Source of the DNA: an uncultured Dehalococcoidales bacterium | Lineage (GTDB): Bacteria; Chloroflexota; Dehalococcoidia; GIF9; AB-539-J10 | Direction of reading: 5' to 3' | Assembly: GCA_964545665.1 (NCBI GenBank) | Contig: CAZJGF010000002.1 | Location: forward strand, 1-38,061 | Length of the DNA: 38,061 bases | In this document: positions 11,823 to 35,611 of the stretch, piece after piece | Layout of the letters: every line of letters starts with the position of its first letter | How positions within the stretch are numbered: the first letter of the stretch is position 1 | The notes under the pieces: model-generated | What the model was told of the DNA's origin: nothing | Databases searched by the model: none | What the model saw: only the letters and a program-made list of their open reading frames with translations | Translations under genes and position numbers: made by a program

Positions 11823-11876
11823 CCTCCCCGTGACCAGCGTAGGAGTCCTCAGCACACATCTTCATGGACCAACCAT

Positions 11877-14427: not shown

Positions 14428-14476
14428 GTTACAACTCCTCACATGTTCCCAATAGTTTGCTCATAAGCCCACATAC

Positions 14477-16174: not shown

Positions 16175-16185
16175 TTCGCAACCTC

Positions 16186-17466: not shown

Positions 17467-17490
17467 TATTACCTGTTACCTCCGTCGCTC

Positions 17491-17925: not shown

Positions 17926-17928
17926 AAA

Positions 17929-18153: not shown

Positions 18154-18176
18154 GTTCACCTCCTAATTATTTCAGT

Positions 18177-18530: not shown

Positions 18531-18634
18531 GATTCACCTCCTTTCTTGCGCTACAACTTGGAACAGGTACAGTGCTTTATTTGCCTGCCGCTGCTTCCAT
18601 AGCTCTCCACCAGCGGCAAATGTTGGTCGCAGGC

Positions 18635-19066
18635 TCAGAGCCCATTTCGCCTCCTATTAAGTGGGCTGGGGCCAAGTCCCCTTACCGTTTCAGTGAAGCT
18701 CCTGACTGTCTCAGCGAACTTTGGTCCTTCTGAAGCCCCTATCCATTCCAGTCTCAGTCTCTCAGGTTGGATCCCCACCGCCCCAAGGAAAGGCTTCATG
18801 GCCACAAACCTTCTACTGGTGCTCAGGTTACCCTTCATATAATGACAGTCGCCAGGATGACAGCCGGCAACTAGAACACCATCCGCCCCGGCAGCAAACG
18901 CCTTAAATATTAACATGTCGCTGACTCTGCCGGAACACATCACCCTTACCGTCCTCAAGTTTGCCGGATACTGCATCCGTGAGGTACCGGCCAGGTCCGC
19001 AGCGGCATAGGCGCACCAGTTGCAGCAAAAGCCAATGATCACGGGCTCAAAGTCATCCCGGTTCAC
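18635..19066 (-). CDS. mvhD: MvhD, copy 3
   Basis: 143 aa. FCCNWCAYAAADLAG, VMCSGRV, AGCHPGDCHY. GTG start with GGAGG 8 nt upstream. Overlaps the upstream hdrA stop by 14 nt. Confidence 0.85.
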   Translation of the reverse strand: MNRDDFEPVIIGFCCNWCAYAAADLAGTSRMQYPANLRTVRVMCSGRVSDMLIFKAFAAGADGVLVAGCHPGDCHYMKGNLSTSRRFVAMKPFLGAVGIQPERLRLEWIGASEGPKFAETVRSFTETVRGLGPSPLNRRRNGL

Positions 19067-20780: not shown

Positions 20781-20781
20781 T

Positions 20782-22209
20782 TCACCCTCCTCCTGCTATA
20801 ACTTCCGCTACCCTGCCTGCCGCTCCTGACGCCTGGGTTACAGAATCAGGTATATCTCGTGGACTGTGGACATAGCCACAAGCAAAGATGCCGGGCTTTG
20901 TAGTATCCAGCGGTTGCGAAAGCTTATCTGGAGTCCTCACAAAGCCATTTTCGTCCAACTCTATTCCTAGTATTTCTGCTAACTCTTTGGTGATTCGGGG
21001 GACCATCGCTTGCGCCAGAACCACCAGTTCTGCCTCAAATCTTTTTATTCCCCCGGTGGTGGTATCCTCATACCAAATAACAGGGTTATCATTCTCGGAG
21101 TTGACTTCAATCCTGCCAGGACGCCCCCTGATATACGTCACGTTATATTCCTGTTTAGCCCTAACGATATATTCCTGAAATCTCTTGCCTACAGCCCTCA
21201 TGTCCATATAGAGAATTGTGGACTTCGTTCCTGGCTCATGTTCATATGCCATCATGGCTTCCTTGGTGGCATGCATGCAGCAGACGCTGGAACAATATGC
21301 TTTGTTCCTAAGATCGCGGGAGCCAACGCATTGGATGAAGGCTATATTGTGAGGGATTTTCCCATCTGAAGGGCGCTTAAGTGCTCCAAAAGTAGGACCT
21401 GATGCCGCAGTCAGTCTCTCGTATTCTATGGCAGTAATGACATTCTTTATCTTTCCATAGCCATATTCTTCCATTTGTGAGATGTCGTAGAAATCTAAGC
21501 CGGTAGCAACTATTATGGCGTCAACGTCGCGATCCAGGACCTGATCAGTCATGTCATGAACAATTGCCTTCGCTTCACAAGCGTTTTCACACCCCTTACA
21601 TTCAAGCTTCTCTGTGAGTCTCAAGCAGTGATTGGCGTCTCTGACGTTTTTCTTAGGCACTGCTTGAGGGAAAGGTAGATAGATTGCCTTCCTTGGAGAT
21701 AAACCAAGGTTAAACTCGTCGGGCACCAGGATAGGGCAAACATTTATCCTTTTGATAGCATCCTTTTGGCACTTTTCTATGCATTTCCAGCAACCAGTGC
21801 AATCCAAGCCATCGTATATCGGCTTCTCACAGTTACATTCTTCCGCTTGTTCCGTAGAACAGGTTACGCCTATGGAAACCAAGCCATCTCTCCTAAGAAC
21901 ACCAAGTTCTTCAAGTTTATCTAAAGCCCTGTCGTCACATCCTCTGGAGACAACTCCAAACCTTTTCTCAGGCCACTTATCCTTAATTTTACGAACGAAA
22001 GTTGCCAGGTTATATCGTGGCTCAAGTTCCAGCTCCTTAAGCTCCTCCTTTTGGGTGAAGAGATAAGGGCCTACATGTCCCCATCTTCTTCGAAGCCCAA
22101 TGATGCCATCGTAACCGTGGTCTAGAATTTCCTCGGCTGCGGCTATTATTCCCCCCTTATCCAGAATCCTCTCTGCTTCCCCTACTATTCTTTCTCCCTT
22201 CTCAGCCAT
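20782..22209 (-). CDS. Chimera: N-terminal half of a FlxB/AsrA-type protein fused to the C-terminal half of HdrA (inserted ferredoxin onward)
   Basis: 475 aa. The first ~130 aa (FGVVSRGCDDRALDKLEELGVLRRDGLVSIGVTC) parallel the N-termini of ORFs 12171-13277 and 13270-14427. They are followed by CTGCWKCIEKC, CKGCENACEAKAI, ATGLDFYD, IQCVGSRDLRNKAYCSSVCC, GIFACGYVHSPRDIPD. There is no N-terminal GxGxxG FAD motif. Confidence 0.7.
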   Translation of the reverse strand: MAEKGERIVGEAERILDKGGIIAAAEEILDHGYDGIIGLRRRWGHVGPYLFTQKEELKELELEPRYNLATFVRKIKDKWPEKRFGVVSRGCDDRALDKLEELGVLRRDGLVSIGVTCSTEQAEECNCEKPIYDGLDCTGCWKCIEKCQKDAIKRINVCPILVPDEFNLGLSPRKAIYLPFPQAVPKKNVRDANHCLRLTEKLECKGCENACEAKAIVHDMTDQVLDRDVDAIIVATGLDFYDISQMEEYGYGKIKNVITAIEYERLTAASGPTFGALKRPSDGKIPHNIAFIQCVGSRDLRNKAYCSSVCCMHATKEAMMAYEHEPGTKSTILYMDMRAVGKRFQEYIVRAKQEYNVTYIRGRPGRIEVNSENDNPVIWYEDTTTGGIKRFEAELVVLAQAMVPRITKELAEILGIELDENGFVRTPDKLSQPLDTTKPGIFACGYVHSPRDIPDSVTQASGAAGRVAEVIAGGG

Positions 22210-24253
22210 GCTTGTCCCCCTTATAGATTTTCACAGCGCAAACTTTGAACTCAGGGATCTTGGCTTCAGGGTCAAGATTTCTGCTGGTAAGCTCATTGGC
22301 GGCACACTCAGCAAAGTGGAAAGGTATAAATACCACCCCAGGGGAAACTCGATCGGTAACGAAAGCCTTTATCTCAATCTCACCTCGCCGTGATTTCACC
22401 TGTACCTTTTCTCCTTGCACTATAGAGAGTCTCGCCGCGTCTTCAGGATTAAGTTCCACAAAGCCTGTAGAGGCTTCCCTTTCTAAGGCAGGGACTCTGC
22501 GAGTCATTGTCCCAGTATGAAATTGAAACATTACTCTGCCCGTGGTTAGAATGAAAGGATATTCCTCGTCAGGTAGCTCAGCGGGCTGTTCATAATCAAT
22601 GGCAAAGAAGCGTCCTTTTCCCCTGGCGAAGATTTCTTCATGAAGCAATTTGGTGCCGGGGTGTTCTTTGGACGGGCATGGCCAAGCTAACACCTCACCG
22701 CTATCCAATCGCTCGTAGGAAATGCCCCCATAGCTAGGGGTAAGATTCACGATTTCCTCCATAATGGCTTGAGGCGACTCATAATTGAATTGGGTGCTTC
22801 CCATTCTTCTGGCAAGCTCAGTGATTATGACCCAGTCAGGCTTGGAATCACCAATAGGCCCTATTGCCTTCCTTCCCCTTTGGACCCTTCTATCTGTTGC
22901 GGTAAAAGTCCCCTCTTTCTCAGCAAAGGAACAGGCAGGCAGCACCACATGGGCAAATTCGGCTGTATCAGAGAGGAAGCAATCCTGTACCACCAAGAAA
23001 TCAAGTTCACTTAGTGCTTTTCTCACGTGGTTTACATCAGGATCGGAAAGCACAGGATTTTCCCCCATTATATACATCGCCTTAAGCGATCCTTCTAGAG
23101 CAGCATCGATCATTTCGGTTACCGTGAGCCCTGGCTCTTGAGGCAATTCAACACCCCAAGCTTTTTCAAATTTGCCTCTGCTGGCTTCATCCCGAACTGA
23201 TTGATAGCCTGAGTAAACATTTGGCAGAGCACCCATGTCGCAGGCACCCTGAACATTGTTTTGTCCGCGCAGCGGATTCACCCCGGTTGACTTGCGGCCA
23301 ACGTTCCCAGTAAGCATCGCCAGATTGGCGCAAGATTCGACATTATCGGTACCGGTGGTATGTTGTGTGATACCCATAGCATATAGGATGCTTGCTTTTT
23401 CAGCTTCCCCATACCATCGAGCTGCCTTCTCCAGTGCAGCTCGGTCGACCCCCGTTATCTGGCAAACCTTTTCAGGCGAGTATTCTCCAACCTTCCTTTT
23501 GAATTCCTCGAACCCTTCAGTACGCCCAGCGATGAAATCATTATCAGCCAAATTCCAAGAAAGAATGAGGTTCATTATGCCATTAAGCAGGCAAACATCT
23601 GTTCCCGGCCTGTGCTGAAGATGGACGTCAGCAAACTCGACCAGTGGTATGCGGCGTGGGTCAGCCACAATCAGCTTGGCTCCCCTTTCCTTCGCCCGTA
23701 GAACCCTTGAGCTTACAAGAGGGTGCTGCTCCATGGTATTGCTTCCTATCACGAAAATACAGCCCGCTCCTTCTATTTCCGGAATGCTATTGGTCATTGC
23801 TCCACTACCAAAGGAGTTAACTAAGCCTAGCACTGTAGAGGCATGACAAAGTCGAGCACAATGATCAACGTTATTTGTGCCAATAACTGCCCGTGCGAAT
23901 TTCATCATGAGGAAATTTTCCTCATTGGTACACTTGGCAGACGAAAGGATACCTATGGAATCAGCTCCTTGCAGTTGCTTTATCTCGCTCAACCTCCCGC
24001 TCACAATTTCTAAGGCCTCATCCCAGCTTGTCTCTTCAAACTTACCATTTCTTCTTACCAAGGGTGATTTCAGCCGATCACGGTGGTAAATGAAGCCTGC
24101 TGCATTCCTTCCTTTGATACAGAGTTGGCCCCCGCTTACCTCGTCGGTTTTGCAGGGAACCACCCCAGTTATTTCACCGTCCAGAACCTCGAGGTAAAAC
24201 TGACAGCCACAGCCACAAAAAGGGCAAACGGTTAATACCAAGTCACAATTCAC
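22202..24253 (-). CDS. fdhA: Formate dehydrogenase catalytic subunit (Mo/W-bisPGD), cytoplasmic, Cys-type
   Basis: 683 aa. N-terminal [4Fe-4S] motif CPFCGCGCQF...C. Active-site region VDHCARLCHASTV has Cys (TGT, 23846-23848) where Sec-type enzymes have U. No signal peptide. GTG start with a 4-nt overlap with the upstream gene. Confidence 0.9.
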   Translation of the reverse strand: MNCDLVLTVCPFCGCGCQFYLEVLDGEITGVVPCKTDEVSGGQLCIKGRNAAGFIYHRDRLKSPLVRRNGKFEETSWDEALEIVSGRLSEIKQLQGADSIGILSSAKCTNEENFLMMKFARAVIGTNNVDHCARLCHASTVLGLVNSFGSGAMTNSIPEIEGAGCIFVIGSNTMEQHPLVSSRVLRAKERGAKLIVADPRRIPLVEFADVHLQHRPGTDVCLLNGIMNLILSWNLADNDFIAGRTEGFEEFKRKVGEYSPEKVCQITGVDRAALEKAARWYGEAEKASILYAMGITQHTTGTDNVESCANLAMLTGNVGRKSTGVNPLRGQNNVQGACDMGALPNVYSGYQSVRDEASRGKFEKAWGVELPQEPGLTVTEMIDAALEGSLKAMYIMGENPVLSDPDVNHVRKALSELDFLVVQDCFLSDTAEFAHVVLPACSFAEKEGTFTATDRRVQRGRKAIGPIGDSKPDWVIITELARRMGSTQFNYESPQAIMEEIVNLTPSYGGISYERLDSGEVLAWPCPSKEHPGTKLLHEEIFARGKGRFFAIDYEQPAELPDEEYPFILTTGRVMFQFHTGTMTRRVPALEREASTGFVELNPEDAARLSIVQGEKVQVKSRRGEIEIKAFVTDRVSPGVVFIPFHFAECAANELTSRNLDPEAKIPEFKVCAVKIYKGDKHG

Positions 24254-25224
24254 TTGCTTATCTCGGTCCCAACAACGGGCCGCTCCTTCACTCGCTCTAC
24301 AAGCTTGTTTTTTGTCTCTGGATCTAGACCTGGAATGATTTCAAAAATTGACTCAGGGGGTTGACGCTGCATAAGGTGATGGATAGTTCTGAGGGGTATG
24401 TCCACAGGACAAGTTTCTTCACACATGCCGCAGTTAATGCAGCTATCGCCAATGCGGTAAGCTCTTATTATGTGAAACAGGGGCACAGCGGGAGGTATTT
24501 CGCCGGGGGCAATCCACTCCGGGTCTTCCAGCTCAGTCTCACCGTAAATCCATACGGGGCAGACATCACAGCAGCCAAAGCACTTTATGCACTTGCTGAG
24601 TTCCTTCTGCCAGAAGTCTGCTCGTGACTCTTCGTCCATCAGGGCCACCCGCTGGGCCAATATCTCAGGCTCCCTTCCTTCTCGTTCCTCAGGAGGAAGT
24701 TCAACAAATCTTCGCCTCTCGAAGGCAACATTGGTCATGGCATGCCTTTCCTTGTTTTCCTCAACACAGGCCTGGGTGCATTCTCCGCACTGGACGCAAC
24801 TTGTCTCGTCTATTTTGATTCGGTCAACCCATATTTCCCCTTCAAACTCCTTCGAGCCATCTAACTCGGTCTGAGTGCACTCCCCGCACCCGGTGCATTT
24901 ATCCCAATCAACGTGTGTTGCCTTCCTCTTGACTTTGACATGGAAATTTCCTTCCTCTCCTGATACTCCCTCCACCTCGGAATAGGTCAAAAGCTCTATG
25001 TTAGGATGCTGGCTTGCCTCTATCATCTTGGGGGCAAGAATACACATAGCACAGTCATTAGTGGGGAAGGTCTTATCTAGCTGTGCCATCCTCCCCCCAA
25101 TACTGGGAGTCTTTTCCACCAAATACACCTTGAACCCCATATTAGCCAGATCGAGAGAAGCTTGAATCCCAGCTATCCCACCGCCAATCACCAAGACCGA
25201 TTTATGTTCATTTTCCCGGTTCAC
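24250..25224 (-). CDS. Chimera: N-terminal (FAD-binding) half of HdrA fused to the C-terminal Cys-rich half of a FlxB/AsrA-type protein
   Basis: 324 aa. VLVIGGGIAGIQASLDLANMGFKVYLVEK, TFPTNDCAMCILAPK, KCTGCGEC, then CVQCGECTQAC, CIKCFGCCDVCPVW, LFHIIRAYRIGDSCINCGMCEETCPVDIP. The latter part parallels CINCHNCMRVCPICYC...LFFHIGRMLHMSLSCVSCGMCEDACP of ORF 13270-14427. GTG start with a 4-nt overlap. Confidence 0.7.
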   Translation of the reverse strand: MNRENEHKSVLVIGGGIAGIQASLDLANMGFKVYLVEKTPSIGGRMAQLDKTFPTNDCAMCILAPKMIEASQHPNIELLTYSEVEGVSGEEGNFHVKVKRKATHVDWDKCTGCGECTQTELDGSKEFEGEIWVDRIKIDETSCVQCGECTQACVEENKERHAMTNVAFERRRFVELPPEEREGREPEILAQRVALMDEESRADFWQKELSKCIKCFGCCDVCPVWIYGETELEDPEWIAPGEIPPAVPLFHIIRAYRIGDSCINCGMCEETCPVDIPLRTIHHLMQRQPPESIFEIIPGLDPETKNKLVERVKERPVVGTEISK

Positions 25225-26375
25225 TTGTCGCCTCCTAAGGCGTTTGCTACCAGATTTACCAAATCCATAACTTCAATTTTTGGCATTACCCGCTTCTCTT
25301 CCCCTTTGTCTACCATAGCGCATCTGAAATGGATTTGACATTTGGGACAAGAGGTTATAAGCATCTGCGCTCCAGTCGAAGCTGCCTCAGACAACCTCTC
25401 TGTCCTTATCATGTTGGAATATGAGTCGCAATTGGTAAAGGCGCTGGTTCCACAACAAATAGAATCCCATCCGCTATGTTCCATCTCAAGAAACTCTACC
25501 CCTGGAATAGAACCCAGCACCTTTCGGGGTGCATCATAGACACCTAGATGTCTTCCTAATCTACAAGGGTCTTGATAAGTTACCTTCTTATCAATCCAGT
25601 TAAACTTAGCCTCCCCTTTCTCTATCTTCTCAGCTAAGAATTCAGAGATATGTTGTAACTCGCAATCCACACTAAACCCATGATTGGGGTAGTCTAGCTT
25701 GAATGTCCGATAGCCCTCAGGACAGGAAAAGATTATCTTTTTCACCCCAGCCTCTTTTATTAGTTTTGTGTTATGTTCGGCTAAGCTCTTGAAGGTCTCC
25801 ACATCCCCGGTCCAAAGCACATCATGCCCACAGCATTTCTCATCTGGAAGCAATTTGGGCTCTATTCCGAAAAAGTTTAAGATTCTTAAGCTTGCCTCAG
25901 TGATATCAAGAGCCCTAAACTCAATATCCTCAAAGACAGGTTCAAAATATGGAGCGCATCCAACCCAGAACAGGACATCGGAGTCGTCAGAGATACGATA
26001 TTCTTTGGATAGCCATTCCAATCTTCTCTGCTTAATGTCAGGACTTGTCATAAGTCGTGCCAAGGATTGCAGTTGCCCCGAGTGGGCATAAATTCCATGC
26101 TGTCCATTATCTTGGGCTATAGCTCGGGCTTGGCGAATGAAAATAGGAAAATCAACATCGCAGGGGCATCTCTGCTGGCAGGTATAGCAAGTTAAGCAAG
26201 AAAAGAGTTTTTGGTTGAAGACCAATACATCCTCAAATCCCAAAAGGGCGTCTTCAATTATCGCCCGCGGAGAGAAAGATGGATCATATCTGGCAACAGG
26301 GCATACACTAGTACACTTGCCGCATTCCAAGCAGTAATAAGTCTTGGTTTCCTGAATAATGTCTTCTAAATTCAA
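25221..26375 (-). CDS. HdrD-like protein (fused HdrC-type 2x[4Fe-4S] + HdrB-type double CCG domain)
   Basis: 384 aa. CLECGKCTSVCP, CLTCYTCQQRCP, then CCG motifs EKCCGHD and SICCGTSAF with SCPKCQ. TTG start with a 4-nt overlap with mvhD. Confidence 0.75.
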   Translation of the reverse strand: MNLEDIIQETKTYYCLECGKCTSVCPVARYDPSFSPRAIIEDALLGFEDVLVFNQKLFSCLTCYTCQQRCPCDVDFPIFIRQARAIAQDNGQHGIYAHSGQLQSLARLMTSPDIKQRRLEWLSKEYRISDDSDVLFWVGCAPYFEPVFEDIEFRALDITEASLRILNFFGIEPKLLPDEKCCGHDVLWTGDVETFKSLAEHNTKLIKEAGVKKIIFSCPEGYRTFKLDYPNHGFSVDCELQHISEFLAEKIEKGEAKFNWIDKKVTYQDPCRLGRHLGVYDAPRKVLGSIPGVEFLEMEHSGWDSICCGTSAFTNCDSYSNMIRTERLSEAASTGAQMLITSCPKCQIHFRCAMVDKGEEKRVMPKIEVMDLVNLVANALGGDK

Positions 26376-26830
26376 ACCGCTACTTCTTCCCTCCTTAAAG
26401 CTGAAAAGGGTGAGGGGCCCAGTTTCTTAAGTTGGTCGACAAATTCCTCAACTACTCTGGCAAACACTGTTCCCTCAGAAGTAGATATCATTTCACGCCT
26501 CAGCCTTTCATCCTCTAAGCCAAGGGTGTGGACTAGCCTCTTTAGCTTGGCGAACATGGCATCACACTTTACCGGCCCATCAATGTAATGGCAGTCGGTG
26601 TATTTACACCCAGCGACTATAACTCCATCAGCTCCTCTTTCAAAGGCTCTAAGGACATAGTCAGGATTTATCATTCCACTGCACATTACCCTTGCAATAT
26701 AAACATTGGGAGGGTATTGGACCCGGCTTGTGCCGGCCAAATCAGCTGCAGCGTAAGTACACCAGTTGCAGGCAAAAGCAATAATCTGCGGCTCAAATTC
26801 AGCCACGGTAAGCCTCCAGTAAGCCATCAA
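26372..26830 (-). CDS. mvhD: MvhD, copy 4
   Basis: 152 aa. FACNWCTYAAADLAG, VMCSGMI, AGCKYTDCHY. Start is TTG at 26830 or ATG at 26827; it overlaps the hdrL 3' end by ~30 nt. Confidence 0.85.
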   Translation of the reverse strand: MMAYWRLTVAEFEPQIIAFACNWCTYAAADLAGTSRVQYPPNVYIARVMCSGMINPDYVLRAFERGADGVIVAGCKYTDCHYIDGPVKCDAMFAKLKRLVHTLGLEDERLRREMISTSEGTVFARVVEEFVDQLKKLGPSPFSALRREEVAV

Positions 26831-29800
26831 CCAAGCTATCTATTTCCTGCATATTGAAATGCCTGATTGACATTGCTCCCGTCGGGCAAACAACGGCACA
26901 CGCCCCACATCCTTTACACAGGGCTTCATTTACGCTGGAGACCAAAAAAGTCCCATCCTTGCTAATAATCGTGGGAGCGTGGAAGGTGCAAATTTCCTCA
27001 CAGCGTCCACATCCATGACAAATGCTTTCATCCACTTGGGCTATGGCTGCCTCAGTGGTTACCTTGCCTCTGCTTATTAACGACAAAGCTTTGGATGCTG
27101 CGGCAGAAGCCTGGGCCACAGTATCAGGGATGTCCTTCGGTCCGGCACAGCAGCCAGCGATGAAAACTCCGTCTGTGGGCGTGTTTACCGGAGCAAGCTT
27201 GGGATGCGTTTCCAAGAAGAAGCCATCGGCTCTCTGACCTATGGTAAAACGACTGGCGATATCGGCTGCATCAGACCGAGCTTGCAGAGCAGCACAGAGG
27301 ATAACCATATCCACCGGGACACGGATCATCCTCCCCAATAAGGTATCCTCAGCCAAGGCAACTAATTTCCCTCTCTCCTCTTCACTTATGGCCTGATCGG
27401 TTATCTTTGCCACCTTGCCTCGGATAAAATTGACTCCCATTTCCGAAACGTGCTGGTAGAATTCCTCATAGGCTTCTCCAAAGCACCTCATGTCAATATA
27501 GAATTCATATACATCGGCCTTGGTAAACTCTTTTATCAGCTCTGCATACTTGAGACCATACATGCAGCAAACCCTGGAGCAGTACTCATGGTAGTTTTTG
27601 TCTCGACTGCCGACACAGTGTACTATGGCTACACTTCCCGGTTCTCTGCCATCCTTAAGTTGAATTCGCCCCTGAGTTGGCCCGCCAGCACACGTTATCC
27701 TCTCAAATTCAAGTCCGGTTAGAACATTATCATACTTCTTATACCCGTATTGAGTCATGACACTGGGATCAAACTGGTCATAGCCAGTAGCCAGAATGAT
27801 TGAGCCTACCTCTACCTCAGCAAACTCCTCTTCCATGCCATGGTTAATCGCCCCTTGCTCACAGACCTTCAAGCACTCCAAACATTCCGAGCATACGCCA
27901 CAGTTGAGACAGCGTTTAGCCTCCTCTACGGCTGTTTCTTCGTCAAAGCCTTGTTCAACCTCAGCAAAGGAGCTTTTTCTCTGGTCAAGGCTAAGCAGCG
28001 GCATGCTGGCTCTTGCCTTTGGTTTGACTCCTTCCGTCGATACCTGTTCTACCTTTTTGGACGCTATTTGTCTTCCCTCGGTTAGGCTAATACCTTTCAG
28101 ATATCGATCGATAGAAATAGCTGCCTCTTTGCCGGCGGCGATGGCTGCAATTACGTCACCGGGGCCGGAGACCGCGTCGCCACCGGCGAAAACGCCATGG
28201 ATGTTTGTTTGCAAGGTAGGAGGGGCGACTTCAAGGGTGCCCCAACCAGTATAGTCCAATTCTTTAGGCAGCATTGTCTTATCCACAGCCTGACCAACAG
28301 CGATGATAAGATTGTCCACATCCATGGTGAACTCTGAGCCTTTGATGGGTACCGGACGGTTACGGCCGCTAGCATCAGGCGTGCCCAACTCCATCCTGAT
28401 ACACTCAATAGCTGTCAATTGACCATCCTCGGATAGGATTTTAACTGGCCCCGCCAGGAAGTGGATCTTGACTCCTTCTCGCTTGGCTTCCTCAACCTCG
28501 GTCCCGATAGCAGGCATTTCAAGCTGAGAGCGGCGATAGACTACAGTCACCTCTTTAGCCCCAAGGCGTGAAGCTAATCTAGCAGCATCGATAGCGGCGT
28601 TGCCGCCACCAATGACTACCACCCGCTCCCCTAAACTAATCTTCACGCCAGAATTTGCCATTCTGAGAAAGTCGAGGGCATGGATTACTCCGCCTGTTTC
28701 TTCACCAGAGACTCCTGTCTTTTGGCTTTCCTGACAACCGTTGCCTAGTAAAATGGCTGTATATCCCTGGTTGAAGATCTCGCCGATGTCTTTAACTGGC
28801 GTATTTGTCCTGATCTCAACCCCCAGTTCTTGTATGTAATTTATCTCGTTATCCACTATTTCTTTGGGCAATCTGTATGCGGGGATGCCATACCTTAGCA
28901 GGCCACCTGGCTGAGGAAGTGCCTCGAACACAGTGACTGCATAACCCTCCCTAACCAAATCGTAAGCACAGGCAAGTCCGGCAGGGCCAGAGCCAACAAT
29001 AGCCACTTTACCCTCTTTTGTCCTTTCAACTGGAGCTGCTCTTTCCCTCCTGAGCCTCAGCTCATAATCAGCAATGAAGCGCTTCAGGCTTCGAATGGCG
29101 ATGGATTCGTCAAACCGCCCTCGCTCGCAGTCCAGTTCACAAGGATGCGTACAGACCCGTCCAACAACCCCGGCAAAAGGCATTGTCCTTCTGACTACTT
29201 CAAGGGCTTCTTTGAACTTGCCCTGGGAAATAAGTGCGACATAGCCTTGAGCATTGACTCCAGCGGGACAAGCAATGCGGCACGGCGCGGTGCCTCTCTT
29301 GTCAATGGCAAAAGCGGCAGGGACAGCTTGGGGGAGGGGAAGATAAGCTGCCTTTCTCATGTGCAGGCCCATTTCAAACTCGTCAGGCACCTCAACAGGA
29401 CATACTTTGGCGCATTCCCCACATGAGTTACATTTAACAACGTCCACATACCTGGGCTTCTTCCTCACTTTGACTTTGAAATTGCCGATATAGCCTGAAA
29501 CCTCTTCTACTTCGCTAGAGGTCATTAATTCGATGTTAGGGTGATGACCGACGTCGGTCATCTTAGGTGTGAGAATGCATTCCGAACAGTCCAAAGTAGG
29601 GAAAGTCCTGTCAAGCTGAATCATATGTCCACCAATGGATGGTTCCCGTTCCACTACATAGACTTTCTTGCCCCCATCAGCGATATCTAAAGCAGCCTGA
29701 ATTCCAGCGATGCCGCCGCCCACAACCAAGACATTAGGATTCACTGGAACTTCCTTAATCTCCAGAGGCTCATGCCAGTAAACGCGCCTTATTGCAGCGC

Positions 29801-30167
29801 GTACAAGAGCCTTGGCCTTCTCTGTAGCTCGCTTCTTGTCTGCAGCATGGGGCCAAGAACAGTGCTCCCTGATATTGGCATGCTCATATAAGTAAGGATT
29901 TAACCCGGCATCTTGGCAAGCTTTGCGGAACGTAGGTTCATGCATCCTTGGTGAGCAGGAAGCAACCACAACTCGATTGAGCCCTAGCTCTTTGATATCA
30001 TTTTTGATGAGATCCTGCCCGGGATCCGAGCACATATACCTGTAGTCACGCGAAATCACTACATTAGGCAAGGTTGTCGCATATTTGACCACCTCCTCAC
30101 AATCCACTGTACCGGCAATATTTAATCCACAGTGGCAAACGTATACTCCGATCTTTACCTCTTCCAT
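26799..30167 (-). CDS. hdrL: Large HdrA-type protein (HdrL-like): complete HdrA with a GltD/NfnB/SudA-type NAD(P)H:FAD module inserted in the inserted-ferredoxin domain
   Basis: 1122 aa. HdrA parts: IGVYVCHCGLNIA, VLVVGGGIAGIQAA, TFPTLDCSECILTPK, CNSCGECAKVCP, [insert], CLNCGVCSECLECLKVC, VHCVGSRDKNYHEYCSRVCC, C-terminal CHGCGRCEEIC...CKGCGACAVVCP. The insert (aa ~290-750, nt ~27918-29300) reads CRIACPAG...GRVCTHPCELDCERG, KVAIVGSGPAGLACAYDL, RVVVIGGGNAAIDAAR, GVFAGGDAVSGPGDVIAAIAAGKEAA. Confidence 0.8.
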   Translation of the reverse strand: MEEVKIGVYVCHCGLNIAGTVDCEEVVKYATTLPNVVISRDYRYMCSDPGQDLIKNDIKELGLNRVVVASCSPRMHEPTFRKACQDAGLNPYLYEHANIREHCSWPHAADKKRATEKAKALVRAAIRRVYWHEPLEIKEVPVNPNVLVVGGGIAGIQAALDIADGGKKVYVVEREPSIGGHMIQLDRTFPTLDCSECILTPKMTDVGHHPNIELMTSSEVEEVSGYIGNFKVKVRKKPRYVDVVKCNSCGECAKVCPVEVPDEFEMGLHMRKAAYLPLPQAVPAAFAIDKRGTAPCRIACPAGVNAQGYVALISQGKFKEALEVVRRTMPFAGVVGRVCTHPCELDCERGRFDESIAIRSLKRFIADYELRLRRERAAPVERTKEGKVAIVGSGPAGLACAYDLVREGYAVTVFEALPQPGGLLRYGIPAYRLPKEIVDNEINYIQELGVEIRTNTPVKDIGEIFNQGYTAILLGNGCQESQKTGVSGEETGGVIHALDFLRMANSGVKISLGERVVVIGGGNAAIDAARLASRLGAKEVTVVYRRSQLEMPAIGTEVEEAKREGVKIHFLAGPVKILSEDGQLTAIECIRMELGTPDASGRNRPVPIKGSEFTMDVDNLIIAVGQAVDKTMLPKELDYTGWGTLEVAPPTLQTNIHGVFAGGDAVSGPGDVIAAIAAGKEAAISIDRYLKGISLTEGRQIASKKVEQVSTEGVKPKARASMPLLSLDQRKSSFAEVEQGFDEETAVEEAKRCLNCGVCSECLECLKVCEQGAINHGMEEEFAEVEVGSIILATGYDQFDPSVMTQYGYKKYDNVLTGLEFERITCAGGPTQGRIQLKDGREPGSVAIVHCVGSRDKNYHEYCSRVCCMYGLKYAELIKEFTKADVYEFYIDMRCFGEAYEEFYQHVSEMGVNFIRGKVAKITDQAISEEERGKLVALAEDTLLGRMIRVPVDMVILCAALQARSDAADIASRFTIGQRADGFFLETHPKLAPVNTPTDGVFIAGCCAGPKDIPDTVAQASAAASKALSLISRGKVTTEAAIAQVDESICHGCGRCEEICTFHAPTIISKDGTFLVSSVNEALCKGCGACAVVCPTGAMSIRHFNMQEIDSLVDGLLEAYRG

Positions 30168-30185
30168 ATCTACTCCAGCTTGTCG

Positions 30186-31334
30186 CTACATTGCCTCCTG
30201 AACTAATTCTGTAATATCCTTGATTTCAATAGTTTCGCCCTTATCCACTCTCAACTGACTATCTTTCAACATGCACATACAATAAGGACAGGCAACAGCT
30301 AATACCTCGGCTCCAGTTGCCAGAGCTTGTTGTAATCTAAGGTCGGCAAATCTTTCCTCTCTCCTGACACCCATCCATATGCCTCCCCCTCCGCCACCAC
30401 AACAAAGACTGTTTTCCCCGAAATCCGACATTTCAACCAGCTCGAGACCAGGAATGCTCCTTAGGACCTCCCGAGGCTCATCATATATGCCGTTATGCCG
30501 ACCAAGGTAGCATGGATCATGATATGTAACCCTCTTATTCAGTTCCTTGGTAGGCTTTATCCTCTGCTCCTTAATGAGTTCTAATAGAAGCTGGGTAGAA
30601 TGAATCACTTCAAATTTGCCTCCGAACTCCGGGTATTCATTTTTGAAAGTGTGATAGCAATGGGGCGAAGAAACAAGGATTTGCTTGACGCCGCTCTCAA
30701 CAAAAGCAGCAATATTGTTCCTTGCTAGCATTTCGAATACGTCTTCATTTCCCAACTTACGGGTGCTCTCACCACAGCAATTTTCTTTACTGCCCAAGAT
30801 GCCAAAATCCACTTGCGCCTTTTTCAGGATATCCACTGTAGCGAGGGCTATCCCCCTCTCCGCCGGTTCATATATGGAGAAGCAACAAGGGAAAAACGAT
30901 AGTGCAGTGCCCGGACCAGATTTCTTCACTCCCAAACCCTTAGCCCAGTCATCCCGCTTTCCCGGCTCCTGACCGAATGGATTGCCCGCACCAGCGATAT
31001 TCTTGACTGTGATTCGAAGGGCATCAGGAACAGCGCCAACGCCTAAACTAACTACAGCTCGGCGCAACGCCCTCATAATGTCGATTATCTCTACGCCACG
31101 AGGGCAGCTCTGGACACAAGCCCGACAAGTGGCACAAAGCCACAGCTCATCACTCTCAAAATCTGTCGCGCCAAGCTGGGCCTCGTGAATAATACGGCGA
31201 ACAATAAAGCTTCGAACCAGATTCCAGGGACAATTAGCAGTGCAAATGCCACATTGGTAACACAATCTCAGAGGGTCACCACCAGCCTCTAGTATCACGT
31301 TTGTGGCTTCTTTGTAAGGAGCTAGCACCTGCAT
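30186..31334 (-). CDS. HdrD-like protein (HdrC-type ferredoxin + double CCG domain), first gene of the long operon
   Basis: 382 aa. CYQCGICTANCP, CATCRACVQSCP, ENCCGES, SLCCGGGGG, ACPYCMCM. Weak SD; the start is taken from the track. Confidence 0.75.
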   Translation of the reverse strand: MQVLAPYKEATNVILEAGGDPLRLCYQCGICTANCPWNLVRSFIVRRIIHEAQLGATDFESDELWLCATCRACVQSCPRGVEIIDIMRALRRAVVSLGVGAVPDALRITVKNIAGAGNPFGQEPGKRDDWAKGLGVKKSGPGTALSFFPCCFSIYEPAERGIALATVDILKKAQVDFGILGSKENCCGESTRKLGNEDVFEMLARNNIAAFVESGVKQILVSSPHCYHTFKNEYPEFGGKFEVIHSTQLLLELIKEQRIKPTKELNKRVTYHDPCYLGRHNGIYDEPREVLRSIPGLELVEMSDFGENSLCCGGGGGGIWMGVRREERFADLRLQQALATGAEVLAVACPYCMCMLKDSQLRVDKGETIEIKDITELVQEAM

Positions 31335-31741: not shown

Positions 31742-32761
31742 CTATGCCTCAGCCCTTTGTCCCTTTTTACGCAGTGCCTCTCGGCGAGCTGCTAGCTTAG
31801 TCAATTTTTGGTCTAAAGCGTCCTGCATAAACTGGCCAAATTCACAAGCTGAGCATTGGAACAGACGGGTGCAAAGTCGATAAGAGACGTCACCCTTTAG
31901 AGCATAACGGCAAAGTCTCTGACTTCCCGGCAGTTCCTTAAACCTCTCCAGAGCCTTATCGATTTCCGGAGCTTCGCCAGCGGCTATTTTCTCTTGCATC
32001 ATCTGGTCAAACTCGCAGGTAAGGCAGTCATAATTCCGGGTGCAGACCCTGTAAGAGACCATGCCCATCTTTGACCAGACGCACTCATTGACTTTCACCA
32101 CCTGTTCGACAGCAGCCTCATCTTCAGGCACCTCAACCCTTGGCTTGGCCAGTTCTTCCTTCGTCCTTTGGATCCAAACTCGGGTTTCCATGTGGCCCGG
32201 AGCGATATGGAGAATAGACTGGAATTCCCTCAACGCTTTCTCATAGCGGCCTGCCCTGAAGCAAGTTTTGCCTTGCTCGAGGTAAGCAGGGATTTCTTCC
32301 TCAGTTATGGCTATGGTTTGCTCAACCTCGGCTTCTTCGACCACTGAAGCTTCCGTTATCGCTGCTTCAACCTTCGCCTCCTCAGGTTTTACCTCTACCT
32401 GAATAGGGCCGAGAACCTCCTGAATTGATTTTTCCAGAGCATCGGGGGCAAAGGGCTTAACCAAGTAATCAACTGCTCCGATTTTCATTGCCTCTACTGC
32501 TGTCTCCATCGAAGGATAAGCGGTGATGATGATTCCTTTAAGCTTTGGGTTTTGCGCTGTGGCCTCTTTCAGCAGCTCAAGCCCATTTTTCCCTGGCAGC
32601 CTTAGATCAAGAACGACAACGCCAAATCCCCTCTTTCCAATTTCTTGCAACGCCTCTTCGCCTTCCTGGGCAGTTTCCACCTCATAGCCCCTATCCTTAA
32701 GCCAGTCTCGAAGCGACTCGCGCATGATGGCTTCATCTTCAACGATCAATACTGATTTCAT
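31742..32761 (-). CDS. Response-regulator receiver protein with a TPR-like motif and a duplicated C-x12-C-x5-C-x2-C-E-F C-terminal module (no recognisable DNA-binding domain)
   Basis: The ATG at 32759-32761 has GGAGG 8 nt upstream (the track starts 9 nt earlier at a GTG). REC hallmarks: VEDE, VLDLRLPG (acceptor Asp), ITAYPS, VKPF. TPR-like AYLEQGKTCFRAGRYEKALREFQSILHIAPGH. The two Cys repeats are ECVWSKMGMVSYRVCTRNYDCLTCEFDQMMQ and RLCRYALKGDVSYRLCTRLFQCSACEFGQFMQ. Confidence 0.85.
   Translation of the reverse strand: MKSVLIVEDEAIMRESLRDWLKDRGYEVETAQEGEEALQEIGKRGFGVVVLDLRLPGKNGLELLKEATAQNPKLKGIIITAYPSMETAVEAMKIGAVDYLVKPFAPDALEKSIQEVLGPIQVEVKPEEAKVEAAITEASVVEEAEVEQTIAITEEEIPAYLEQGKTCFRAGRYEKALREFQSILHIAPGHMETRVWIQRTKEELAKPRVEVPEDEAAVEQVVKVNECVWSKMGMVSYRVCTRNYDCLTCEFDQMMQEKIAAGEAPEIDKALERFKELPGSQRLCRYALKGDVSYRLCTRLFQCSACEFGQFMQDALDQKLTKLAARREALRKKGQRAEA
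32360..32761 (-). repeat. REC-plus-linker coding repeat, copy A (paralogous to 34629-35030)
   Basis: Protein segments are collinear and highly similar, including the linker VLGP(I/V)QVE(V/I)(K/R)PEE(A/T)KVEAA. In a 61-nt stretch aligned by eye (32701-32761 vs 34970-35030), 53/61 positions match. Confidence 0.8.
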
Positions 32762-32819
32762 TTCTTCCACCTCCTTTCACCCTTTGGTGTCGCAGTCTTT
32801 CAGCCAACTCCTTTCGTTT

Positions 32820-35030
32820 TCACATCAGCACTCCCTCAATTTCAGCCGTAATCTGCTCAGTGGTAGAGTTACTGATGGTAATGGCCTCACTAGGGCAGGC
32901 AGCACTACATGCACCGCATCGCTTACATTTAAGGTCATCTATAACTGATACTACCCCTTTATTAGATTCCACTAGTTTGATGGCGTCATAGCTACATACG
33001 GCGGCACAAATTCCACAGCCACTGCACACATCCTGGTTGACTTCAATTTCTGCTATCTCAGGCTGAACTCCCAGTGCCACACATGCTTTACAGCTCTTAC
33101 ATGGACCGCAGTCCAGACACCTCCTGGCCTCTTCCACTGCTTCTTCCAAGGTGAACCCCTTTTTAAACAGTTCAAAGTTCATCCTCTCTAGTAACCATTC
33201 CGATTCAGGCTGAGGCTTGTATTCCATAAGCTTGGGGATAGCAGCGGCTTCATACTGCTTCTCTCTACCCAGCTTCAGGTCTTCACCCCTCAGGTAGCGG
33301 TCGATGGACTCCGCTGCTATCACCCCATCTCTCATTGCTTCTGCGGCAAAACCTACTCGTCTCACATCGCCGCCGACAAAAACCCCTTCCTTACGATTGC
33401 TCATGAGAGTGAGGGGATCGATATCGAGCCTGCCTCTCTCATTCACCAGCCCTTCTTGGGAAAAGAATGTCCGCTCTGGACCTTGCCCTATAGTAACCAG
33501 CAGCACATCGCCCTCAAGATATATTGCAGCGCTGTGGTCAAACTTAGGATTAAATCCGCTTTCGTCAAAGACCGAGGTGCATCGGGGACACTTTATTTTC
33601 TTGAATTTCCCATCCTCTCCGATTATCTCTTCTACACCTCGGGAGTAGTATATCTTTAATCCTTCCTCAGTAGCGCCTTCTATCTCCTCCACATCGGCCG
33701 GAATCCCATCCTTGGAAGATTTATCTTCATTTTCGAGGCAGACAATGGAAACATCTGCACCAAGCCGCCGTGCACTCCTTGCTGCATCAAATGCCACATT
33801 GCCACCGCCTATCACTATCACTCTCTCCTCTCGGAAGAGTTGCCGAAGGAGCTCTTGACAAAGCCTGTTTTGGTTCAGCTCGAAAAGGAGATGCAAACCA
33901 AAGGCGACTCCGCCGAGGTCTGCTCCATTTATTAGCTGCCCCTCCATACTCAGGGGTCTGGGAGAAGGAGTACCAGTAGCAATGAACACAGCTCGGTACC
34001 CCTCACTCTTAAGGTCATCCAGCGTTTCCCCGCCATTGCCCATTGTTGCTCCAAACTCAACATCAATATGGGCAATCCTTGCCAGATTATCTAAAGTGTT
34101 ATCTATAATATTGGTGGGAAGACGATATTGGGGGATATATCTCAACGCGCCTCCCAATTGTGAGCTCCTTTCCAGAATAGTCACCCGATAGCCCTTTTTG
34201 CTCAGTTTGTAAGCACACATCAGCCCTCCGGGGCCCCCACCGATCACCGCAACCTTTTCTCTGGTAGGATAGGGAAGTGGCGGTTTGGTTTCTAGATATG
34301 GAAGATAATGATCGGTGAGGAATCGTTTAAGCATCGTTCTTCTTATTGCCCCCGTCTGGTCTTTGTAATTGCATTCCTTCTCACAAAGCCCACAAATATA
34401 GCTGCATACCGTGAATAGAGGATTCTTGTCATAAATTTCATCACCTATCTCTATTATCTGGTTGTAAGCTCTCTCAGCATCCAAAGGAAGATACGCTATC
34501 ATTGTGTTAGTGCGCTGAATAGGCTCTCCGATAGGACAAGCTATCTGACAAGGAGGCAGACATACTTTCCCGGTTGCCTCGTCAATCACCTCCTCAACCA
34601 CCTCCTCAACTGCTGGAACTTCCACCACGGCTGCCTCAACCTTGGTCTCTTCAGGTCTTATCTCCACTTGAACCGGGCCGAGAACCTCCTGAATTGGTTT
34701 TTCCAGGGCATCAGGGGCAAAAGGCTTGACTATGTAATCGACTGCCCCGATTTTCATCGCCTCCACTGCAGTCTCAACCGAGGGATAAGCAGTAATAACA
34801 ATTCCCTTAAGCTTAGGGTTCTGCACCGTGGCCTCCCTCAACACCTCGAGCCCGTCTCTTCCTGGTAGCCTCAGATCGAGAACCGCAACACCAAATTCTC
34901 TCTCCCCAATCTTCTGCAATGCCTCTTCACCTTCTTCGGCAGTGTCCACTTCGTAGCCATCTTCTTTAAGCCAATCTCGGAGCGATTCTCGCATGATGGC
35001 CTCATCCTCAACGATCAATATTGGTTTCAT
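32820..35030 (-). CDS. Receiver (REC) domain fused to a GltD/NfnB/SudA-like FAD/NAD(P)H oxidoreductase and a C-terminal 2x[4Fe-4S] ferredoxin domain
   Basis: The ATG at 35028-35030 has AGGAGG ~9 nt upstream (the track starts at TTG 35060). REC: IVEDE, VLDLRLPG, ITAYPS, VKPF. Then CLPPCQIACPIG, CSYICGLCEKEC, KVAVIGGGPGGLMCAYKL, RVIVIGGGNVAFDAARSA, GVFVGGDV...AMRDGVIAAESIDRYL, RRCLDCGPCKSCKAC, CSGCGICAAVCS...CKRCGACSAACP. Confidence 0.85.
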   Translation of the reverse strand: MKPILIVEDEAIMRESLRDWLKEDGYEVDTAEEGEEALQKIGEREFGVAVLDLRLPGRDGLEVLREATVQNPKLKGIVITAYPSVETAVEAMKIGAVDYIVKPFAPDALEKPIQEVLGPVQVEIRPEETKVEAAVVEVPAVEEVVEEVIDEATGKVCLPPCQIACPIGEPIQRTNTMIAYLPLDAERAYNQIIEIGDEIYDKNPLFTVCSYICGLCEKECNYKDQTGAIRRTMLKRFLTDHYLPYLETKPPLPYPTREKVAVIGGGPGGLMCAYKLSKKGYRVTILERSSQLGGALRYIPQYRLPTNIIDNTLDNLARIAHIDVEFGATMGNGGETLDDLKSEGYRAVFIATGTPSPRPLSMEGQLINGADLGGVAFGLHLLFELNQNRLCQELLRQLFREERVIVIGGGNVAFDAARSARRLGADVSIVCLENEDKSSKDGIPADVEEIEGATEEGLKIYYSRGVEEIIGEDGKFKKIKCPRCTSVFDESGFNPKFDHSAAIYLEGDVLLVTIGQGPERTFFSQEGLVNERGRLDIDPLTLMSNRKEGVFVGGDVRRVGFAAEAMRDGVIAAESIDRYLRGEDLKLGREKQYEAAAIPKLMEYKPQPESEWLLERMNFELFKKGFTLEEAVEEARRCLDCGPCKSCKACVALGVQPEIAEIEVNQDVCSGCGICAAVCSYDAIKLVESNKGVVSVIDDLKCKRCGACSAACPSEAITISNSTTEQITAEIEGVLM
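34629..35030 (-). repeat. REC-plus-linker coding repeat, copy B (paralogous to 32360-32761)
   Basis: See copy A. The plus-strand shadow ORFs 32724..32948 and 34993..35307 both begin MMASSSTIN because they are antisense to the shared VEDEAIM codons. Confidence 0.8.
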
Positions 35031-35145
35031 TGCCTTTGCCTCCTCTTTCTTGTTTGTCAAGATTGCTTGTCTGTCTATCTTTCAGCTCCTTTCATCTTTT
35101 AGTATGCCAACTTCTTCCCTTTGGGTTGTTCCCACCTTGCTGATA

Positions 35146-35161
35146 TGCAATTTTCTTGCCA
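35146..35161 (-). promoter_or_regulatory. Sigma-54 (-24/-12) promoter upstream of the two REC genes
   Basis: Minus strand reads TGGCAAGAAAATTGCA, against the consensus TGGCACG-N4-TTGCA. GG and GC have the exact 10-nt separation, with one mismatch in the -24 hexamer. About 115 nt upstream of the ATG at 35030. Confidence 0.6.
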
Positions 35162-35194
35162 AAATAGAAAGCTACCCAAATTTTCTGGGTAGCT
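35161..35194 (-). terminator. Rho-independent terminator candidate after the EBP remnant
   Basis: Minus strand reads AGCTACCCA-GAAAATT-TGGGTAGCT: a perfect 9-bp stem with a 7-nt loop, followed by TTCTATTTT. The T-tract abuts the -24 element of the sigma-54 promoter. Confidence 0.5.
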
Positions 35195-35252
35195 TTTGTT
35201 GCCAAGGAAGACCAAAGACTTGTAATACTTTTGCAGCCTGTAAAGACATTGG

Positions 35253-35611
35253 TCACACAGTGTCTATTTTCTTTACGCCACGACCATTGCCTCTCGCCTT
35301 GTTGTAGAGTGTCATTCTGGTGATTCCTAAGATTCTAGCCGCCACGCTACAATTTCCTCCAGTTTCACAGAGGACATTCAATATATGGCTTTTCTCCACC
35401 CCTTTAGGGCCCCCCGCGGTACAGTTGCGCGAGCTGGCGGCATATTTTCATGAAGTGAATCGACAACTGTGACAAGGCCAGCTTCGGCTAGGATGGTTGC
35501 CCTTTCGATAGCATTTTCCAACTCACGAACGTTTCCCGGCCAGTCATAATCGAGCAGAAACTCTGTTACCTTTCGGGAGAATCCAGCGACCTCTTTTTGA
35601 TACTCCGAGGA
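35253..35611 (-). pseudogene. 3' remnant of a sigma-54 enhancer-binding protein (NtrC-family AAA+ activator), 5'-truncated and frameshifted
   Basis: Minus-strand translation gives [47 protein letters not shown].... After a -1 shift near the C6/G6 homopolymer at 35410-35415 it continues [37 protein letters not shown] (Fis-type HTH), with a stop at 35253-35255. An in-frame TGA at 35612-35614 and the rpoN-like stop at 35662 leave no room for Walker A/B. The track lists no ORF of 60 aa or more here on this strand. Confidence 0.7.

Follow-up and report, generated by a model that had tools for sequence, protein, structure and literature searches.

An open reading frame (ORF) in the 38,061-nucleotide window analysed here (contig CAZJGF010000002.1 of assembly GCA_964545665.1, positions 1 to 38,061, from an uncultured Dehalococcoidales bacterium) encodes a 736 amino acid (aa) protein in which a response-regulator receiver domain (REC) is joined to an iron-sulfur (Fe-S) flavoprotein of the NfnL/GltD type that ends in a ferredoxin domain. 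The fusion is genuine and conserved. We put at about one in two the probability that this protein is a response regulator whose output would be, in place of a DNA-binding domain, an electron-transfer flavoprotein that partners an Mvh-type [NiFe] hydrogenase.

The reading frame is open over 32820..35060 on the minus strand, uninterrupted and free of stops and frame breaks. We take the ATG at 35030 as the true start because MKPIL opens all orthologues in the alignment and a GGAGG lies 9 nt upstream. On the 736 aa product, Pfam recognises Response_reg at residues 4–113 (1.5e-29; 102.9 bits for a cut-off of 30.2), Pyr_redox_2 at 259–569 (3e-33; 116 bits), Pyr_redox at 403–480 and Fer4_7/Fer4 at 669–718; a match to Fer4_20 at 157–241 is weak (23.9 bits, under the gathering cut-off of 25.8, and to profile positions 27–107 only). 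Among 5.8 billion proteins searched, more than 115 full-length homologue clusters have the same layout, at 64–92% identity, and PF00072 is found on all homologue clusters except a few short, partly aligned matches. Their source names are automatic ('FAD-dependent oxidoreductase', 'NADPH-dependent glutamate synthase beta subunit-like oxidoreductase/CheY-like'), and no NCBIfam model passed its cut-off on the REC-flavoprotein; NF009410 (PRK12771, 'NAD(P)-binding protein', GltD-like plus ferredoxin) scored 321.7 bits over residues 157–688, its threshold being 516. With each GTDB species represented by a single genome, a scan for the family gave 51 loci (numbered with an L below), the closest to the window gene being L004 and L005 at 82–83% identity. 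The sequence-only reading of this DNA had named a fusion of two genes during assembly as a possible source of error; such an artefact is ruled out by the more than 115 full-length clusters, which come from independent assemblies, and by the 15–17 GTDB species genomes that encode the fusion. The single unbroken frame, the Glu/Val-rich linker between receiver and redox parts, and the C-terminal 2x[4Fe-4S] ferredoxin that it described were all borne out. In an AlphaFold2 model (predicted local distance difference test, pLDDT, 75.7; predicted template-modelling score, pTM, 0.65) the domains are folded and the linker is disordered (pLDDT 27–41). The coordinates of these parts are collected in Table 1.

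The receiver carries the acidic pair E8-D9, the acceptor D52 (in VLDLRLPG), T80, Y99 and K102. Across 21 homologues D9, D52, T80, Y99 and K102 do not vary, and in a set of 122 each is conserved to at least 90%, in agreement with the complete receiver seen by the sequence-only reading, which had counted loss of the acceptor Asp on alignment as a reason to drop the idea. The ratio of nonsynonymous to synonymous substitution rates (dN/dS) between the window gene and L004/L005 is about 0.07 in REC, compared with 0.17–0.19 in the enzyme core, and the nearest structures are the NtrC1-type receivers 1ny5 (6e-22) and 1zy2; NCBIfam likewise points to the NtrC family. From its residues the domain is complete and almost certainly phosphorylatable, and we reject a pseudo-receiver on the basis of the invariant phospho-chemistry residues together with the dN/dS of 0.07.

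REC and the conserved tail that follows it, LGP(V/I)Q(V/A)E(I/V)(K/R)P, recur together as a cassette, the tail being common to all REC-cassette paralogues. The next gene in the window encodes a second such protein, whose cassette is 82% identical to the REC of the flavoprotein over 125 aa (about 77% in DNA), and whose Cys-rich C terminus has no match in Pfam or NCBIfam. Only 49 nt, with no terminator, separate the two genes, which are probably co-transcribed. Orthologues of this second protein close a regulatory module in L003 and L005–L008, and L005 encodes four cassette proteins plus NtrC. The REC-cassette paralogues are 82–86% identical and cluster by genome, not by output. In the same gene pairs (window with L004/L005), the synonymous divergence (dS) is 1.1–1.2 in REC versus 0.45–0.53 in the enzyme part. 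A receiver dS more than twice that of the core, together with the grouping of paralogues by genome, suggests cassette exchange or gene conversion between REC paralogues, and a common kinase. A homology search with REC alone retrieved 179 cassette proteins, including REC-REC forms; they are mainly short or truncated, and this census is biased.

In the enzyme core, the Fe-S ligands C161-x3-C165-P and C209/C213/C216/C220 precede the flavin domains, and the segment behind them reads EEARRC638-x2-C641-x2-C644-x2-C647-x2-C650. Fer4_20 usually begins with a CxxC; here, as in HdrL and NfnA, this pair comes behind the flavin domains, as C638/C641. The two-cluster N-terminal region of GltD type proposed earlier thus has the Cys ligands listed first and is incomplete alone. 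The cysteines of the ferredoxin domain span C669 to C712 and are of the standard 2x[4Fe-4S] type. Altogether, 23 Cys are invariant or nearly so in the alignments of 21 and 122 sequences, and C431 and C484 (KCPRC) are invariant among 36 family members. The protein would most likely carry four clusters, possibly five. As had been read from the sequence, the FAD Rossmann motif (VIGGGPGG) and a second, dinucleotide Rossmann motif (GGGNVAFD) are both present. In 36 of 36 family members, with or without REC, VCLE-x2-DKSSKDGIPA replaces the VYRR-type motif for the 2'-phosphate of NADPH, with an insertion of 4–5 residues relative to the VYRR-bearing NfnL proteins; the insert of the HdrL encoded in the window keeps the canonical NADPH motif VVYRRSQLEMPA (VVYRRS). 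In Rossmann folds an acidic residue at that strand-end position favours NAD(H). The replacement of VYRR by VCLE thus makes the use of NADPH doubtful and NAD(H), or another ligand, more likely.

By sequence and by structure the core is best matched by the NfnL-like domains that belong to NfnA of NfnABC (9n5u, 9bov) and to StnC (8oh5_C), followed by NfnL/NfnB (5jca_L, 4ylf_B) and then by DPD and GltD; the fold matches reach template-modelling scores of 0.72–0.74, normalised to NfnL. In NfnABC the NfnL-like domain oxidises NADPH at its FAD and passes the electrons to two [4Fe-4S] clusters, and in NfnSL the equivalent flavin is the bifurcating one (PMC11829005). NfnL (of NfnSL/NfnAB) and NfnA/StnC (4ylf_B, 5jca_L, 9bov_A, 9n5u_A, 8oh5_C) share with our protein the fold, the FAD motif, GGGNxAxD and [4Fe-4S] ligands on either side of the flavin domains, and NfnA/StnC also have the EAxRCxxC segment behind these domains. 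Unlike NfnL, it has VCLE-x2-DKSSKDG, the invariant C431/C484, the extra motif of five Cys, an HdrA-type ferredoxin domain and the N-terminal REC, and its genomic partner is an Mvh hydrogenase. No NfnS (FNR-like FAD plus [2Fe-2S]) was found among the scanned window ORFs or beside the gene in L001–L003, which does not fit an NfnSL system, and the window has no Bfu BC core.

The HdrL of the window (26799..30167, 1122 aa) offers a second comparison. Its insert is 34% identical to the core over 529 aa (E 1e-63), the Cys motif behind the flavin domains, AVEEARRCLDCGPCKSCKAC, aligns with AVEEAKRCLNCGVCSECLEC of HdrL, and the ferredoxin tail is 32% identical to the C-terminal ferredoxin domain of HdrL; the paralogy with the HdrL insert that the sequence-only reading had recognised is confirmed. 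Only these two portions of HdrL align. HdrL has in addition a whole HdrA core, and VVYRRS, whereas the N-terminal Cys domain and the thioredoxin-reductase-type FAD domain of HdrA were not found in the REC protein, which has REC and belongs to a separate family. With HdrA in MvhAGD-HdrABC (5odc) it shares a homologous C-terminal 2x[4Fe-4S] domain, the occasional fusion to MvhD and the same genomic, presumably physical, place beside MvhA, MvhG and MvhD; its flavin domain is unrelated (GltD/NfnL type, not thioredoxin-reductase type), it has a Rossmann site of the pyridine-nucleotide type, and HdrBC are not needed in most loci. By these alignments, the protein resembles an NfnL-type module, occupies the place of HdrA and belongs to neither family.

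Mapping the genomic neighbourhoods of the architecture, as the sequence-only reading had proposed, was done by tblastn with the window proteins as queries in 50 loci, over 10 kb on either side. The genes mvhG-mvhA lie directly upstream of the enzyme gene in about 30 of the 50 loci, with mvhD shortly downstream; these mvhG-mvhA copies are 75–89% identical to window positions 8796..11275. In L003, L008 and L046 mvhD-mvhG-mvhA follow the enzyme gene, and hdrL, REC-enzyme, mvhD, mvhG and mvhA come one after the other in L003, L008 and L010. Altogether, about 33 of the 50 loci place the gene together with mvhA, mvhG and mvhD, as for a subunit of a group 3c complex, and an HdrA core lies within 10 kb in only seven of the fetched loci. 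Beyond mvhD, many loci encode a second MvhD-ferredoxin protein and MetV, and some of them MetF as well. Copies with REC also stand inside hydrogenase operons (L001, L011–L015). Besides, the core is fused to a C-terminal MvhD (FlpD) in eight loci (L024, L025, L027, L028, L029, L039, L043, L044), and the same fusion is seen in P0245 and P0265, at 37–41% identity, from a library of representatives at 50% identity. Three of these loci (L028, L029, L039) have two core paralogues, one after mvhGA and one fused to MvhD before metV. Because of the gene order and these Rosetta-stone fusions, the core is likely to be the flavoprotein partner of an Mvh-type [NiFe] hydrogenase, at the place that HdrA has in Mvh-Hdr.

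Nearly all of the 51 loci come from metagenome-assembled genomes (MAGs) of Dehalococcoidia/Chloroflexota, with a few bins labelled Deltaproteobacteria, Desulfococcus or Planctomycetota, and the enzyme core is a separate and almost purely Dehalococcoidia family. The 82–83% identity to L004 and L005 likewise makes a Dehalococcoidia genome the most probable source of the window; an origin in Desulfobacterota, to which HdrL had seemed to point, was rejected on this distribution of relatives. An N-terminal REC is encoded in about 15–17 loci. In about 29 others the core (58–78% identity) starts around 25 residues before CQIACP, with no space for a receiver, and in a single locus, L046, REC stands at the C terminus. 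The N-terminal REC forms make up one clade in a neighbour-joining tree of the cores, two apparent exceptions being sequences cut or damaged at the 5' end. In the Planctomycetota-type proteins L046 and P0241 (58% identity) REC comes after the ferredoxin domain. Judged from the tree, the N-terminal REC was gained once and the C-terminal fusion arose separately. The receiver thus joined the core at least twice, at opposite ends, which argues for a functional coupling of the two.

In several relatives the REC-enzyme gene belongs to a signalling module. The order in L005 is sigma54-like protein, histidine kinase, NtrC, REC protein, REC-enzyme, REC protein and the REC protein with TPR and Cys motifs (REC-TPR-Cys). 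L007 opens in the same way, with a second kinase before NtrC, and continues with REC-enzyme, REC-TPR-Cys and a further REC protein; its additional kinase has 422 aa. In L003 and L006 the sigma54-like protein, kinase, NtrC and REC-TPR-Cys are located downstream of the REC-enzyme gene. The kinase adjacent to the REC-enzyme in L003 and L005–L007 combines Fer4, Fe_hyd_lg_C and FeS domains with HisKA and HATPase_c (L005 5700..7643; L003 16744..18696; L006, L007). It has the H-cluster motifs SSSCP, GPCVAKKAE and FFCQGC, in which the proton-relay Cys of TSCCP is replaced, a substitution that we take to be typical of sensory HydS-type enzymes. Histidine-kinase-linked group C1 [FeFe] enzymes are listed in HydDB as putative H2 sensors (PMC5037454).

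No histidine kinase was found among the scanned window ORFs, as the sequence-only reading had noted. The apparent 600-bp spacer between the sigma54-like gene and the REC-enzyme gene is occupied by the last 115 or so codons of ntrC in two frames (aa ~336–452 of the NtrC of L004/L005), and this region has 73.6% DNA identity to L004 over 591 nt. The kinase gene and about 330 codons of ntrC thus appear to have been deleted, in the source lineage or in the assembly. This deletion accounts for the missing kinase, since the ntrC remnant was left behind and relatives carry kinase and NtrC at this place. The two REC proteins of the window would then be orphans, or would rely on a kinase encoded in another part of the genome. 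A sigma54-type -24/-12 motif precedes the REC-enzyme gene. The motif alone is not significant, with 22 window matches at two mismatches or fewer, as chance predicts; the same motif is found immediately after ntrC in L004, L005, L006 and L007, before whichever REC gene follows, and this conserved position points to a sigma54 promoter on comparative grounds. Two further motifs of this kind (7590..7605 and 31236..31251) lie inside coding regions and were taken as chance. Upstream, the 367 aa sigma54-like protein has orthologues in L003–L007, which suggests a dedicated sigma factor heading the kinase/NtrC module. Its N-terminal 225 aa match no Pfam or NCBIfam family; by eye, the N terminus resembles region I. 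A scan of the window with Rfam gave no match.

Table 1. Positions of the REC-flavoprotein gene, its parts and other features of the window
Feature	Position	Strand	Basis or remark
Gene for the REC-fused NfnL-like/ferredoxin flavoprotein, 736 aa	32820..35030	-	ORF listing; Pfam; >115 full-length homologues
Receiver (REC) domain, aa 1–118	34677..35030	-	Pfam; residue conservation; dN/dS; NtrC1-type structures
Tail LGPVQVEIRP, then acidic E/V-rich flexible linker, aa 119–146	34593..34676	-	Low pLDDT; tail common to REC-cassette paralogues
NfnL/GltD-type module, aa 147–590	33261..34592	-	Pfam; structure matches; alignment of 36 members
Motif of five Cys, C638-x2-C641-x2-C644-x2-C647-x2-C650	33081..33119	-	HdrL alignment; invariant in 36 of 36
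2x[4Fe-4S] ferredoxin domain, aa 660–720	32871..33053	-	Pfam Fer4_7; 5odc_A 571–649, 9sfi_A; HdrL 1036–1117 at 32%
Second REC-cassette protein, TPR + 2x C-x12-C-x5-C-x2-C-E-F	31742..32770	-	ORF; Pfam; cassette comparison
Candidate sigma54-type -24/-12 promoter TGGCAAGAAAATTGCA	35146..35161	-	1 mismatch to consensus; ~115 nt upstream of ATG
Intrinsic-terminator hairpin, 13-bp stem + T tail	35168..35196	-	Inverted repeat kept in L004/L005; ended the lost ntrC
Frameshifted 3' remnant of NtrC-type sigma54 activator (AAA+ lid, HTH_8)	35292..35611	-	tblastn
Compact sigma54-like protein, 367 aa	35662..36765	-	Only the C-terminal Sigma54_DBD recognised; orthologues L003–L007
mvhD-mvhG-mvhA, group 3c-type [NiFe] hydrogenase	8796..11672	-	Window MvhA with MvhA 5odc_F, 5e-114
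HdrD-like CCG protein, HdrL, MvhD	26372..31334	-	Candidate electron-transfer partners

Other proteins with the REC cassette were seen outside the window. On a 784-nt metagenome contig (P0154) the same cassette and tail are joined to a Fer2_4/[2Fe-2S] N terminus of the NuoG/FdhA/HydA type, the protein being cut by the contig end. P0308 (L055 273..3926) is a 1217 aa protein with three REC domains and a complete HdrA-like part, followed by a hybrid kinase of REC-PAS-HisKA-HATPase type. In L005, near-identical REC-cassette proteins are encoded on both sides of the REC-enzyme gene (9164..9892 and 12272..12982); their C terminus of about 90 aa is by eye Lrp/AsnC-type RAM/ACT-like and has no match in Pfam or NCBIfam. 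A transposase gene (14702..15370) comes after this cluster. The window itself has about 29 kb of same-strand redox genes (2131..31334, minus strand), which include the HdrD-like and HdrL genes, four MvhD genes, several HdrA-like genes, Mvh and a second [NiFe] hydrogenase, each with its protease, and genes for an FdhA-like molybdopterin enzyme, FrhB-like proteins, a DsrE-like protein, two MetV, MetF and a DUF3786 protein. MoaA/MoaC are encoded at 178..2081 on the opposite strand.

Under the favoured reading, electrons from H2 would pass from MvhAG through the [2Fe-2S] cluster of MvhD and the Fe-S chain of the core to FAD, and from there to a pyridine nucleotide, probably NAD(H). Via the ferredoxin domain they would reach ferredoxin or the neighbouring Hdr/MetVF modules; bifurcation may or may not occur. 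Phosphorylation of D52 would alter the alpha4-beta5-alpha5 face of REC, as in receivers of the NtrC1/DctD type, and would toggle the subunit between coupled and uncoupled states, most likely by a dimerisation or release of REC that governs docking to the MvhD/Hdr partners. The signal would come from the module upstream in relatives, that is, the sigma54-like factor, the [FeFe]-hydrogenase-like sensor kinase (for H2 or redox state) and the NtrC-type activator, and the same module would drive transcription of the gene from the conserved sigma54 promoter. H2 or redox status would thereby act on the subunit at two levels, synthesis and activity, together with one to four other REC-cassette proteins. 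In its widest form, the proposal is that a shared REC cassette, grafted on redox subunits (NfnL-like here, HdrA in P0308, NuoG/FdhA-type in P0154) and phosphorylated by an H2- or redox-sensing [FeFe]-hydrogenase-like kinase, gates electron flow through hydrogenase/Hdr/Nfn-type, possibly bifurcating, complexes, on top of sigma54/NtrC control. This wider idea we hold tentatively and with less confidence than the partnership of receiver and hydrogenase flavoprotein.

The same domains could be wired the other way round, along the lines of the redox sensor for a phosphorelay that the sequence-only reading had suggested. The flavin/Fe-S module would then be the input, reading NAD(P)H, ferredoxin or H2-derived electron pressure, and REC would be a phosphate sink or a redox-modulated receiver that competes with NtrC. 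In the window and in L004–L007 the gene does lie within a regulatory cluster, between ntrC and other REC proteins, it is accompanied by several single-output REC-cassette paralogues, and the altered dinucleotide pocket with the invariant C431/C484 could mean sensing rather than turnover. However, REC-less orthologues at 61–74% identity occupy mvhGA-...-mvhD operons, some of them fused to MvhD, and REC-bearing copies occur in hydrogenase operons as well; all the cofactor motifs and the full ferredoxin domain are kept, as for a working electron-transfer subunit, and with REC at the N terminus and the other module behind it the protein has the usual order of receiver and output. Given above all the REC-less orthologues, we consider a sensor unlikely. 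Similarly doubtful is a stand-alone, phospho-regulated pyridine-nucleotide:ferredoxin oxidoreductase, an NfnL/Xfn-like enzyme or a soluble copy of the HdrL module that works alone or with HdrA paralogues and is not a hydrogenase subunit. The likeness to the HdrL insert with its common Cys motif, the NfnL-type best matches in PDB and by fold, the position directly after hdrL in L003, L008 and L010, and several HdrA-like genes of the window that have no NAD(P)H module all speak for it. Yet no partner of NfnS/NfnA type (FNR-like [2Fe-2S]) is present among the scanned window ORFs, the family has lost the NADPH motif, its prevailing and presumably ancestral setting is mvhGA/mvhD with neither HdrA nor HdrL, and the MvhD fusions indicate a complex coupled to MvhD. 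The suggestion that the protein is a free-standing copy of the NAD(P)H module of HdrL under phosphorylation control thus keeps its homologous module and its complete receiver, but needs changing in other points: the family is separate, its context is mvhGA/mvhD and the NADPH motif is replaced.

A receiver that is purely structural or vestigial, or a fusion that is an assembly or annotation artefact, might be expected from the disordered linker and from a window with no kinase, where the ntrC and kinase genes are deleted. This explanation is largely refuted, and we leave it a very slight chance: the fusion recurs in the independent clusters and species genomes counted above, the phospho-chemistry residues are invariant under a low dN/dS, and REC was independently fused at the other end of the enzyme. 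As for the reading that we prefer, a response regulator with a hydrogenase-partner flavoprotein as its output, the architecture is solid and the neighbouring genes are coherent, and several points weigh against it. The function is a prediction throughout, and the relatives all come from uncultured MAGs or metagenomes. The AlphaFold2 model yields no confident REC-enzyme interface or docking site for REC. The NAD(H) assignment is predicted from the motif, and the neighbour maps come from tblastn with window queries. The window gene is 21 kb from mvhGA (on the same strand), beside regulators and outside any hydrogenase operon; with no kinase among the scanned ORFs and no intact NtrC in the window, control may be lost in the source organism. 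The kinase is variable, L004 and L047 matching its core only and L007 having two, so that any cognate pairing of kinase and REC would be tentative. At about nine REC-bearing loci adjacent to mvhGA (L001, L011–L015, L017, L018, L049) no kinase was found within 10 kb. Finally, the REC of NtrC is only 44–50% identical to the cassette REC and forms its own clade.

Response regulators with enzymatic outputs are well known. Like CheB, PleD/WspR and RpfG, the protein described here has a canonical REC with acidic pocket, Thr, Tyr and Lys, tethered by a linker to a catalytic module; in contrast to them, the output here would be an Fe-S flavoprotein that belongs to a complex of energy metabolism. In the open-access literature we found no publication on fusions of REC to NfnB, GltD or HdrA, nor on response regulators with an Fe-S flavoenzyme as output, in line with the sequence-only reading, which regarded such fusions as uncharacterised and would have given up the idea had the architecture proved common with an assigned function; the automatic source names and the NCBIfam scan supply none. 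The signalling module of the relatives recalls HoxBC-HoxJ-HoxA and HupUV-HupT-HupR ([NiFe] group 2b) and the putative sensory group C1 [FeFe] hydrogenases (HydDB, PMC5037454), where a hydrogenase-like sensor, a histidine kinase, an NtrC-type activator and sigma54 are likewise found near hydrogenase genes. In comparison with these systems, the kinase of the relatives carries its own sensor, of [FeFe] type, within the same protein, the compact sigma54-like protein is apparently dedicated, the putative targets include several REC-cassette proteins, one of them an enzyme subunit, and the module is deleted in the window.

How much energy anaerobes at the thermodynamic limit can spend, subsurface Dehalococcoidia among them, is determined by flavin-based bifurcating complexes and hydrogenases, whose regulation is, to our knowledge, known almost only at the level of transcription. 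If our reading is true, the built-in receiver would let these cells switch their electron routing within seconds on H2 or redox signals, an idea strengthened by the presence of the same receiver cassette on HdrA-like and NuoG/FdhA-like proteins. The protein would then represent a previously unrecognised class of response regulators, with an energy-conserving Fe-S flavoenzyme as output, and add a post-translational layer over sigma54/NtrC control. The combination of mvhGA, the NfnL-like/ferredoxin protein and mvhD, in which HdrA has no part, would likewise be a previously undescribed partnership of the hydrogenase. Since metVF lie downstream in many loci, the acceptor specificity of the core, for NAD(H) or another ligand, bears on how H2 may be coupled to the Wood-Ljungdahl pathway.

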